Source of the DNA: Candidatus Woesearchaeota archaeon
Lineage (GTDB): Archaea; Nanobdellota; Nanobdellia; Pacearchaeales; GW2011-AR1
Length of the DNA: 55,568 nucleotides
Assembly (NCBI GenBank): GCA_964409555.1
Contig: CAYPDP010000004.1
Coordinates: forward strand, 1-55,568
Reading direction: 5' to 3'
This document shows positions 29,365 through 31,804 of this stretch, piece after piece. The position numbers were made by a program, and so were the translations under genes. How positions within the stretch are numbered: position 1 is the first letter of the stretch; every line of letters begins with the position of its first letter. The notes beneath the pieces are model-generated. The model saw nothing but the letters and a program-made list of their open reading frames with translations, was not told where the DNA came from and searched no databases.

Positions 29365-29784
29365 TTATTCTTTTAAAATTTTTTTAACACTTTCTTTAAT
29401 TTCATTTACTTTATTTTTAGAAATATTCATTGGAATTCCAATTATCTTTATATTTTTAGGATTTAATAATTTTAAGAAAAATCCTGCATCAAAATCATGA
29501 GCATTAGTTATACTTTCAACAGAAAGGTCTTCAATAGAAATTATCTTAACTTCCAAGATATTCTGAACAACATCAAGAATAAATATTTTTTCCTGATTTT
29601 TGTTTTGAATATTTTTTTTATCAAAAATTGTTAAATAATCTAATAATTGAAAACTATCTTTGATATTTATGAATTCAAATTTATCTTTTGATAATTCATT
29701 TGATATTTTATAGGCTATCTTTTTAGCCAAATTATCTTTAACAATAAATTCATTTCCAAGACAAAGAATTTTTATTTTAAACAT
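29365..29784 (-). CDS. Hydrogenase maturation endopeptidase (HycI/HybD-like, divergent)
   Basis: LCLGNEFIVKD, ILDVV, NAHDF; near the hydrogenase genes. Confidence 0.65.
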   Translation of the reverse strand: MFKIKILCLGNEFIVKDNLAKKIAYKISNELSKDKFEFINIKDSFQLLDYLTIFDKKNIQNKNQEKIFILDVVQNILEVKIISIEDLSVESITNAHDFDAGFFLKLLNPKNIKIIGIPMNISKNKVNEIKESVKKILKE

Positions 29785-29834
29785 GTATAATAATTAAAAG
29801 AAAAACTTAAAAATGCTTCTAATAATCTTAATTA

Positions 29835-30761
29835 ATGAGAAAGAGTATTGAAAAAAAGAAAAATTATTCTAATGAATTTGTTGGAACTATATTAGTTTTA
29901 TTAACTGCTATTATTTCTGGAGGAGCAATTGTTATTAACAAGTATTTTGTAGTTAGAATAGATCCTTTGTTGTTTACAGCCATAAGAGCTCTTTTTATTG
30001 GTTTAATATTTTTGTTTATCTCTATTTTTGTCTCTAGAATTGAAAGAAAGAAATTTAAAAAAGCTTCATGGAAATCATTATTACTAATTGGAGTTATTGG
30101 TGGAGGATTTGCATTTTGGTTGTTTTTTTCAGGACTTAAATTAACAACGGCTGGAAGAGCTGCATTTTTGCATAAAACTCTACCTATTTATGCAGTAATT
30201 TTAGCATTTATTTTTCTTAAAGAGAAAATAACAAGAAAACAACTGATTGCTATAGGAATAATGATTATCGGTTTAATATTAATGCAATTAACTAAAATTG
30301 GAACTGAAATAAGGATAGGTGATTTGCTTGTTTTAGGTGCGACAGTATTATGGGCAATTGAAAATACAATATCAAAAAAAGTAATGATTAATAAAGAAAG
30401 CAACTGGGTTGTGACATTCAGTAGGATGTTTTTCGGCTCATTGTTATTATTTTCTATAATCTTTTTAACAGGGAAAATTGATTTACTCTTATCTTTAACT
30501 ATGGAACAAATTGTCTATATAGCTGTATCAGCTATGATATTATTTTTGTATGTATTAACTTGGTATTGGGGACTTAGCTATATTAATTTATCAAAAGCAG
30601 CTACAATCTTACTTATAGCCCCAGTTATATCCTTAATACTTGGAGTTTTATGGTTAGGTGAACAGGTATTTATGATACAGTTAATAGGTTCTGCTTTAAT
30701 TCTTGTAGGAGCCTATATCATGATTAGAGTTAAGAGTGAAAGAAGAATTCAGGAACTCTAA
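29835..30761 (+). CDS. EamA/DMT-family transporter
   Basis: About 10 TM segments in two repeats. Confidence 0.85.
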   Translation: MRKSIEKKKNYSNEFVGTILVLLTAIISGGAIVINKYFVVRIDPLLFTAIRALFIGLIFLFISIFVSRIERKKFKKASWKSLLLIGVIGGGFAFWLFFSGLKLTTAGRAAFLHKTLPIYAVILAFIFLKEKITRKQLIAIGIMIIGLILMQLTKIGTEIRIGDLLVLGATVLWAIENTISKKVMINKESNWVVTFSRMFFGSLLLFSIIFLTGKIDLLLSLTMEQIVYIAVSAMILFLYVLTWYWGLSYINLSKAATILLIAPVISLILGVLWLGEQVFMIQLIGSALILVGAYIMIRVKSERRIQEL

Positions 30762-31231
30762 TTTAATTTTTCAATAGCATATGCATAATGAATCTTAACT
30801 TTATCTCCAACTTTTACTTGAGGAACTAGAATATTAAAAACAACTCTTTCTTTTTCTTCATATTTTACTAAAAGTCTATTGTCTTGTTTTTTTATAATTT
30901 CTGCTATATGAATTCTGCATAAATCTTTAAGAGATTCTGGATGATTTTTATAAGAACCTTTACCCTGATTTATTACTTTATTATGTTCTTTTTCCCAATA
31001 AAATTTAATAACCTCCAAATCCCATATTTCTTTCCCAATATTATCTGCAATTTCTTTAATCCAAACAAATGCAGGAGCAAAAATTTTTTCTAAATATTTT
31101 TTATCAACTATTTCACTATTCAAAAAATTTCTCTCTAATTCTTCATGTTCTTTTTTTGTTATATCTCCTCTTTCTAATTTTAAATAAGCACAAGGAAAAG
31201 CATACATAAAAAAATATTTTTCAGGAATCAT
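30758..31231 (-). CDS. Hyp-associated protein with HypC-like C-terminal barrel (DUF6390-like)
   Basis: YAFPC, CRIH, VKVGDKVKIHYAYAI; follows hypA-hypC. Confidence 0.55.
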   Translation of the reverse strand: MIPEKYFFMYAFPCAYLKLERGDITKKEHEELERNFLNSEIVDKKYLEKIFAPAFVWIKEIADNIGKEIWDLEVIKFYWEKEHNKVINQGKGSYKNHPESLKDLCRIHIAEIIKKQDNRLLVKYEEKERVVFNILVPQVKVGDKVKIHYAYAIEKLN

Positions 31232-31269
31232 CTTAATTTTTGTTTTTGTTTAAAGACTATTTTAATAGA

Positions 31270-31473
31270 TTAATTTTCTAAAATAAGATTAATTGCTTCT
31301 AAAGCATCTTTCTCAGGAATTTTTCTAATTATAAATCCTTCTGATATTATAACATAATCTCCTATTTTAACTTTAATTAAAGATGCTTGTGCATTTCTTT
31401 TTTCTTTTCCATACGCCACAATTACTTCATCATCATAAACATGAATCACTTTTCCAGGTATTGCAAAACACAT
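31270..31473 (-). CDS. hypC: HypC/HupF chaperone
   Basis: MCFAIPG N-terminus; IGDYVI. Confidence 0.88.
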   Translation of the reverse strand: MCFAIPGKVIHVYDDEVIVAYGKEKRNAQASLIKVKIGDYVIISEGFIIRKIPEKDALEAINLILEN

Positions 31474-31474
31474 T

Positions 31475-31804
31475 TTATTCAGAATAAAAAACTTTTTTTA
31501 TTTTAATATTTTGACCTTTTAAAGTTTCAACATTAAAAGAATCACATTTCAGACATGAAAAAATAACTAAATCATGTAATCTTTCTTTTATTTTAGCTTC
31601 ACCTTCATAATCACATTCATTACAATTTATTTTTGATTTTATTTTATTAATTTTCACGTCCCATTTAGTTTCATCAATCAAATGTTCTTTTAGATGTTCT
31701 AATTCAATTCCTACTAATTCTCCAAGTTCAATTTCAATTCCTTCTACTTTATTTTTATTTGGAATATCCTTAATTATTGCTTGAATAAATGTATGTTCGT
31801 GCAT
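31475..31804 (-). CDS. hypA: HypA nickel metallochaperone
   Basis: MHE, CNEC, CLKC. Confidence 0.88.
   Translation of the reverse strand: MHEHTFIQAIIKDIPNKNKVEGIEIELGELVGIELEHLKEHLIDETKWDVKINKIKSKINCNECDYEGEAKIKERLHDLVIFSCLKCDSFNVETLKGQNIKIKKVFYSE

Follow-up and report, generated by a model that had tools for sequence, protein, structure and literature searches.

According to two recent reviews (PMC12134894, PMC12130793), every [NiFe]-hydrogenase depends on six Hyp proteins, HypA to HypF, for its NiFe(CN)2CO cofactor. In the HypCD complex, Cys41 and histidine motifs of HypD are placed at the iron site, and HypD is the [4Fe-4S] scaffold partner of HypC. The present study deals with an archaeal gene module that contains hypA and hypC together with a gene for a protein of 157 amino acids (aa), named X in the following, in a genome in which HypB, HypD, HypE, and HypF were searched for and not found. 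The module is located on contig CAYPDP010000004.1 (C4) of assembly GCA_964409555.1, which represents a DPANN-type archaeon (760 kb, about 24% GC, estimated completeness 86%); "the window" denotes the whole stretch of 55,568 nucleotides that was analyzed. Comparisons of genomes and predicted structures suggest that X might serve specifically in the maturation of [NiFe]-hydrogenases in DPANN archaea without HypD, HypE, HypF, and HypB, and that it might take the scaffold role of HypD, a reading for which the scales are evenly balanced.

The maturation genes of the window, and the transporter gene that lies among them, are:

31475-31804, minus strand: hypA, nickel metallochaperone, 109 aa (PF01155 45.3 bits, cut-off 28.9; MHE N-terminus; CxxC...CxxC zinc site)
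31270-31473, minus strand: hypC, 67 aa (PF01455 61.7 bits; TIGR00074 47.3 bits versus a cut-off of 48)
30758-31231, minus strand: X, 157 aa (HypC-like barrel according to AlphaFold2 (AF2) and Foldseek; remote homolog of DUF6390)
29835-30761, plus strand: EamA/DMT-family transporter, 308 aa (PF00892 164.7 bits; TIGR00950 98 bits, below the cut-off)
29365-29784, minus strand: divergent [NiFe]-hydrogenase maturation endopeptidase, HycI/FrhD-like, 139 aa (TIGR00072 E 3e-4; TIGR00142 E 6e-4)

The hypA gene is the first gene of a hypA-hypC-X operon, and this gene order is kept in relatives. The original prediction, which was made from the sequence of the window, had listed hypA, hypC, the open reading frame (ORF) of 157 aa, and a protease. 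The coordinates and profile matches bear out this gene set, with the protease being weak by score (both TIGRFAM matches are under the cut-off and there is no Pfam match) and syntenically conserved, as homologs occur in the corresponding module of nearly all related loci. The genes for HypA, HypC, X, the protease, and both hydrogenase subunits are each present in one copy in the genome.

It had also been noted that hypB, hypD, hypE, and hypF are missing from the window, and profile, homology, and motif searches extend this to the whole 760-kb assembly. HypD (PF01924) did not give a signal in the whole assembly at E<=1, HypE (TIGR02124) was not found in it, and the search for HypF (TIGR00143) returned just acylphosphatase and Kae1-type fragments far under the cut-off. 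Neither a homolog of HypB from a related HypD-bearing genome nor an ENVGN motif was detected in the whole assembly; "HypB" ATPases of the Mrp/MinD type are indistinguishable from housekeeping paralogs. The canonical HypABCDEF set is thus represented in this genome without HypB, HypD, HypE, and HypF. As positive controls, 16 other genomes from the phylum did give matches. A canonical hypDEF set or a second HypC elsewhere in the genome had been named as a finding that would speak against the original prediction, and the genome search found none of these genes.

Distribution and genomic context of X

Close homologs of X number 24; all of them are metagenomic, and those with names stem from metagenome-assembled genomes of Nanoarchaeota and Pacearchaeota. 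The whole family comprises 324 clusters at 50% identity (E<=1e-10). Its distribution was analyzed in two samples, i.e., 151 genomes of the GTDB family of the window and 401 genomes of the phylum, 400 of which are at least 90% complete. Within the family sample X is present in 14 genomes. The hydrogenase large subunit is encoded in 13 of these 14, compared to 3 of the 137 others (Fisher p=4e-15, a value that, like the one below, is only indicative and overstates independence, because the genomes are phylogenetically related). Seen from the other side, X is found in 13 of the 16 genomes with a large subunit and in 1 of the 135 others. HypD is encoded in none of the 151 genomes, 16 of which bear the hydrogenase, and HypE in none of the 17 genomes of this GTDB family that bear the hydrogenase or X.

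In the phylum sample the large subunit is present in 92 of the 401 genomes. Full-length X occurs in 39 genomes and the large subunit accompanies it in every case (39/39), compared to 53 of the 362 genomes without X. This is the opposite of a family without a link to hydrogenases, which had likewise been named as speaking against the original prediction. HypD was detected in 16 genomes, all of them with a large subunit. The co-occurrence of the X family with the absence of hypD, which had been proposed as a check, is borne out: X and HypD are found together in none of the 92 large-subunit genomes (39 with X, 16 with HypD; Fisher p=5e-5). Five short matches to X in HypD-bearing genomes are ordinary hypC genes adjoining hypD and were excluded from the count of full-length X. 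HypF shows the same pattern, being present in all 16 HypD-bearing genomes, in none of 38 X-bearing genomes, and in none of 26 other HypD-less hydrogenase genomes. Altogether, 76 of the 92 hydrogenase-bearing genomes of the phylum sample are devoid of HypD, and HypF is missing in all 64 of those that were tested. The pattern of X is far beyond chance. The replacement between X and HypD does not reflect one deep split, because the GTDB families f57 and f97 each contain genomes of the X type and of the HypD type.

The genomic context is conserved as well. In relatives, hypA, hypC, X, and the protease gene are either arranged on a single strand by the large subunit gene, or hypA-hypC-X is followed by a convergent EamA gene and then the protease gene, as in the window. 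X is commonly located 1-3 kb from the large subunit gene. The relatives examined have one short HypC per genome, which is encoded immediately upstream of X. In several clusters HypC and X are even fused to a single protein (P0005, P0027, P0032, P0155, and P0175), and one of the fusion genes lies on a 152-kb contig at the syntenic position. Another fusion was found in P0120 (280 aa), where an X homolog follows a cytidylyltransferase-like nucleotidyltransferase domain (MKVVCFGTFDVFHKGH...); this could be a gene-call artifact or a hint at a nucleotide-dependent step.

The EamA gene of the window is convergent with X and overlaps its 3' end by 4 nt. No other EamA gene was found in the genome. Homologs of this transporter (E 1e-38 to 1e-136) are encoded at 7 further X loci, the window itself being locus L005, and at 14 loci with DUF6390, and in the majority of related loci an EamA ortholog directly adjoins X or DUF6390. 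TIGR00950 comprises carboxylate/amino acid/amine transporters, and the nearest curated families of the window EamA are carriers for amino acids, cysteine, and aromatic amino acids.

In one subclade X is extended at the N-terminus by a Lys-rich segment (181 aa). This form is encoded between a TIM gene and the EamA gene in L004 (genome G041), L016, and L017, and neither hypC nor hypA lies within 10 kb of X at these three loci. In G041 a whole-genome search with PF01455 matched X alone, so that X may be the sole HypC-type protein of this genome. ORFs of 67 aa next to X in L016 and L041 were considered as hidden hypC genes and rejected on translation.

Residues and structure of X, HypC, and DUF6390

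The HypC of the window is the sole short HypC of the genome and has one of the two signature residues of HypC. Cys2 is kept (MCFAIPG start), while Ser occupies the position of the conserved His51 (GDYVIISEGF compared to the canonical GDYVLVH(A/V)GF). The original prediction had pointed to the sequence YVIISEGF at the histidine site, and the deviation turned out to be systematic. Every HypC adjoining X carries Ser or Asn at position 51, including the HypC halves of the fusion proteins, whereas His51 is kept in all three HypC proteins of the same phylum that are encoded next to hypD (GDYVLVH(A/V)GFAI). Loss of His51 is seen in all HypC proteins that adjoin X, adjoin DUF6390, or are fused to HydE.

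The sequence of X includes YAFPC, LCRIH, and VKVGDKVKIHYAYAIEKLN. It had been described as HypC-like with the histidine, with Cys in YAFPC and CRIH, and structure prediction and profile alignment agree with this description. The AF2 model is of high confidence (predicted local distance difference test (pLDDT) 96.2, predicted template modeling score (pTM) 0.89) and consists of two parts. Residues 1-105 form a seven-helix domain with the conserved C14 (FPCA) and H83-N84. Foldseek did not find a match for this domain in the PDB outside the HypC barrel, and a profile search returned HypC alone. Residues 105-157 form a HypC-like barrel of five C-terminal strands, which corresponds to the five-stranded barrel of HypC of the oligonucleotide/oligosaccharide-binding type and superposes on HypC of T. 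kodakarensis with 0.9 Å at 31-33% identity (Foldseek). The root-mean-square deviation to 3vyt_A, 3vyr_A, and 2z1c is 0.9-1.1 Å; the target-normalized template modeling (TM) score is 0.92 for the superposition at 0.9 Å and reaches values of up to 0.93. In the profile alignment to 2z1c, C105 is equivalent to Cys2 and H148 to His51 of HypC, and the two residues should be close to each other, because the barrel superposes on HypC. By score X is below both curated HypC cut-offs (24.3 versus 28.5 bits for PF01455, 13.9 versus 48 for TIGR00074), and some X homologs exceed that of PF01455.

The conservation of single residues was determined with 151 diverse representatives of the family. H148 is invariant (151/151), and with H83 (99%), C105 (96%), Y78 (95%), and C14 (93%) it makes up the group of best-conserved positions. 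Ten sequences are without C14, and eight of them have a Cys four residues on, a shift by one turn within that helix (FPALxxC). This relocation argues that a thiol is required at a fixed spatial position.

With HypC, HybG, and HupF (PF01455, TIGR00074; 2z1c, 3vyr-3vyu, 2ot2) the C-terminal 53 residues of X thus share the fold, a Cys before strand 1, and a His after strand 4, and X is encoded together with hypA, hypC, and a protease gene beside a hydrogenase. However, X does not have the Cys as first residue after the initial Met; its equivalent, residue 105, is located behind a folded helical domain of 104 residues, in contrast to the processed N-terminus of HypC. X also is devoid of the C-terminal helix. 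It exists alongside a second protein, the His-less HypC, and was found only in genomes without HypD.

Hydrogenase-bearing genomes with neither X nor HypD number 37 in the phylum sample, and 20 kb around the large subunit gene was compared in 20 of them. DUF6390 (PF19927), an uncharacterized Pfam family, is encoded in 15 of these 20 loci (within L022-L039), six by Pfam (E 1e-35 to 1e-45) and the rest by a local DUF6390 profile (E<=1.6e-77). The gene is commonly located downstream of the EamA ortholog on the same strand and overlaps it, indicative of translational coupling, and it is convergent with a His-less hypC. The HypC proteins of these loci have Gln, Ser, Val, or Met at position 51. hypA, the protease gene, and the hydrogenase genes are nearby, and several DUF6390 loci are without hypA within 10 kb. 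In L036 two tandem DUF6390 paralogs of 263 and 211 aa are encoded.

X and DUF6390 are related. A profile-profile alignment with hhalign resulted in a probability of 97.4% (E 9e-12) across residues 49-157 of X, with the Cys and His of the barrel aligned. X is under the PF19927 cut-off (17 versus 25 bits) and matches just positions 139-168 of the 244-position model. On the basis of the profile-profile alignment X is a shortened, sub-threshold relative of DUF6390. Both proteins share an N-terminal Cys, a YW motif, a Cys ahead of the HypC-like barrel, and the barrel His, and both belong to a module of His-less hypC, EamA, protease, and hydrogenase in genomes without HypD and HypF. Differences are that X is about 90 residues shorter and does not have the PHHxFNVxYVGVG segment and the barrel insertion. 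The gene arrangement also differs: X lies behind hypC in the same orientation and EamA is the convergent gene, while DUF6390 lies behind EamA in the same orientation and hypC is the convergent one.

A third arrangement was found in L021 (11786-14450; genome G254 from the GTDB family of the window) and in L040 (128-2810; genome G440). Both encode a HypC with Cys2 and without the His, which is fused to HydE. The HydE halves score above the cut-off of TIGR03956 (267 and 278 bits), and HydG is encoded directly after the fusion (TIGR03955, 562 and 538 bits). The pairs lie a few kb from a [NiFe]-hydrogenase of the group 3b type and its protease. HypD and HypF were not detected in the two genomes, and X and DUF6390 were not detected nearby. 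This arrangement suggests that the synthesis of carbon monoxide and cyanide (CO/CN) of the [FeFe] type may feed a [NiFe] enzyme. P0179 is a partial HypC-HydE fusion, and its genome is without HypD, the one protein tested there. At L030, L035, and L038, hypA and/or the protease gene are present, and hypC, X, DUF6390, HydE/HydG, and EamA were not found within 10 kb.

Possible roles of X in hydrogenase maturation

It is very probable that X is a maturation factor that works with HypC. That the two proteins act together had been part of the original prediction, and it is supported by the recurrent HypC-X fusions and by the His-less HypC that is strictly tied to X or DUF6390. At the level of comparative genomics the original proposal is supported; in terms of mechanism, the two proteins may replace HypCD as a non-canonical scaffold for the Fe(CN)2CO unit, or the cofactor may be scavenged. 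X could also take over the scaffold role of HypD, with the balance tipping slightly to the other side for this part. Here the similarity to HypD would be limited to function: besides the HypC-type Cys/His pair, X has another conserved Cys and a further His, which would correspond to Cys41 and the histidine motifs of HypD in HypCD. HypD is larger (about 370 aa compared to 157 aa), there is no similarity in sequence or fold, and X has no HypE partner. HypD-less genomes have kept intact hydrogenases along with HypA, HypC, and the protease, and X and DUF6390, the larger of the two related proteins, are the first candidates to consider for the missing HypDEF function.

The following mechanism is conceivable. 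The iron unit would be held in a Cys/His pocket to which the barrel contributes C105 and H148 and the helical domain C14 and H83, and this pocket would do in one small protein the job of the site that is built from Cys2 of HypC and Cys41 of HypD in HypCD. The His-less HypC might dock on X, take the iron unit via its Cys2, and deliver it to the large subunit. HypA would insert nickel, and the protease would cut off the 7-residue tail of the large subunit. The linkage of EamA to X suggests that a CN/CO precursor may be imported by this co-inherited amino-acid-type transporter, and the HypC-HydE/HydG variant in sister genomes suggests tyrosine-derived ligands as one solution in the phylum. Taken broadly, and rather tentatively, DPANN archaea may make the [NiFe] site without HypD, HypE, HypF, and HypB via at least three modules, namely, X, EamA with DUF6390, and the HypC-HydE fusion with HydG, each with a His-less HypC. 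X and DUF6390 would then each be a Cys/His iron scaffold made of a single protein, and the ligands would come from a possibly imported precursor, or in the HydE/HydG class from tyrosine cleavage by radical S-adenosylmethionine (SAM) enzymes.

There is precedent for such additional proteins. HoxV, HupK, and HoxL of oxygen-tolerant hydrogenases are relay scaffolds that hold the iron unit on its way from HypC-type proteins to the large subunit, and they exemplify that hydrogenase-specific carriers of this unit exist in addition to the common set. However, these systems still depend on HypCDEF, and HoxV and HupK resemble the large subunit and not the HypC domain.

Several points weigh against a scaffold role of X. 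The motifs CGxHxH, GPGCPVC, GFETT, and PxHVS of HypD and the cysteines for its Fe-S cluster are absent from X, which has just two conserved Cys, so that X cannot reproduce the redox and ATPase chemistry of HypD. The barrel Cys is internal, unlike the free N-terminal Cys that is thought to be used in HypC chemistry, five members of the family have Ser at position 105, and one member is without both cysteines. For the natural HypC-X fusion P0005 the AF2 model (pLDDT 92, pTM 0.71) has a disordered linker and does not contain a confident interface. An enzyme that makes CN or CO (HypE/HypF or HydE/HydG-like) was not found in the genome of the window, including any HydE/HydG-like radical SAM enzyme as a source of both ligands. 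The relatedness of the genomes behind the Fisher values belongs here as well, and so does the 86% completeness of the assembly. Nevertheless, incompleteness as the cause of the missing HypDEF proteins was ruled out, because neither HypD nor HypF is present in any of 38 X-bearing genomes of at least 91% completeness, and identical searches recovered both proteins from 16 of 16 others.

The HypC fold of the barrel and the missing enzyme for CN/CO would also fit with X being an extra HypC-type chaperone or holdase specific for the large subunit, like HybG, HupF, or HoxL, without any part in building the cofactor. A ready-made Fe(CN)2CO unit, or the ligands for it, would be taken from a host or the environment, perhaps via EamA, or the HypDEF functions would be supplied by the host. 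DPANN archaea are episymbionts with reduced genomes, and a dedicated EamA ortholog, the sole EamA of the genome, travels with X and DUF6390, which is in line with such a dependence. But the strong conservation of Cys and His in the helical domain, along with the shift of C14 by one turn, speaks for a defined site for a metal or ligand and not for a simple holdase, and the mutual exclusion is specifically with HypD and HypF. Furthermore, cells are not known to take up an organometallic unit that is bound to a protein. A pure chaperone is regarded as unlikely. Sets of two Cys and two His are typical of Ni and Zn sites, and X might alternatively be a nickel metallochaperone that replaces HypB as the partner of HypA, with its Cys2His2 set binding Ni or Zn and its barrel docking on the large subunit. 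The absence of HypB from the genome and the position of hypA at the head of the X operon agree with this idea. It is nevertheless quite improbable, as the residues kept in the barrel are precisely the pair with which HypC handles the iron unit, the neighboring HypC has lost its His only where X or DUF6390 is present, and several DUF6390 loci do not contain hypA within 10 kb. In addition, a number of organisms that do not have a protein like X can do without HypB or have a substitute for it.

A last alternative is that the active site is different or simpler, or that the hydrogenase is a decaying relic, and that X is an unrelated neighbor or a structural subunit. No route to CN/CO was detected, and archaeal [FeFe]-hydrogenases are likewise mostly without known maturases, according to a study that does not cover Hyp proteins (Greening et al., 2024; PMC11216029). 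However, conservation across dozens of genera extends to all four metal-site cysteines, to the PRG arginine and the C-terminal tail, and to the genes for HypA, HypC, and the protease, and X is restricted to hydrogenase-bearing genomes and fused to HypC in several lineages. This conservation, together with the restriction of X and the fusions, argues for purifying selection on a maturation role, and a relic enzyme is very improbable.

If X indeed acts as an iron scaffold, it would represent a minimal route to an organometallic cofactor, which is maybe transferable to other hosts. It would explain H2 cycling by ultra-small symbionts and would give a handle on the still unsettled roles of His51 of HypC and of the HypD scaffold. 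There is a substantial chance that this variant of the Hyp system marks a HypDEF-independent pathway. A hypC-like family has been described near hydrogenases of the Candidate Phyla Radiation (CPR), together with "unknown genes" that support function (Jaffe et al., 2020). A literature search did not find a paper that names DUF6390, nor one that ties DPANN or CPR to hypC or hypD. What the present study adds is the short X family, with figures for its mutual exclusion with HypD and HypF, as well as the swap of the histidine, the shift of C14, and the fusions of HypC with X.

The hydrogenase and neighboring genes

The hydrogenase genes of the window are all on the plus strand:

21542-22543, plus strand: hydrogenase beta subunit (diaphorase)
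22540-23361, plus strand: hydrogenase gamma subunit (diaphorase); NF040829/NF040833 and NF040830/NF040835 match the beta/gamma pair
23270-24154, plus strand: hydrogenase small (delta) subunit (PF01058 76 bits; NF040836/NF040831 about 153 bits, aligned from residue 32-39)
25779-27071, plus strand: [NiFe]-hydrogenase large subunit, group 3b, 430 aa (PF00374 103 bits; NF040832, sulfhydrogenase alpha, 284 bits)

The presence of the beta and gamma diaphorase subunits identifies the enzyme as being of the four-subunit group 3b type, and the features of this group are all present, i.e., four subunits, the L1 and L2 cysteine motifs, and the C-terminal tail. The metal-site motifs RICGIC and DPCFSCSTH of the large subunit are intact, and the 7-residue tail FLKVNWE after the His is the predicted substrate of the protease. 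All hydrogenase scores are below the equivalog cut-offs, and therefore the enzyme is a divergent member of group 3b.

Divergent from hypA, two ORFs (216 and 130 aa) are located at 31881-32987; they do not match a Pfam family, and their adjacency to the module is not kept in relatives. Four small ORFs of 86, 118, 149, and 151 aa lie between the genes for the small and the large subunit (24155-25782), and the last one overlaps the start of the large subunit gene. The ORF of the small subunit is listed from 23270, and all family models align only from 31 codons downstream, i.e., after the segment 23270-23362. The true start is probably the Met codon at about 23363, which abuts the stop codon of the gamma subunit gene.

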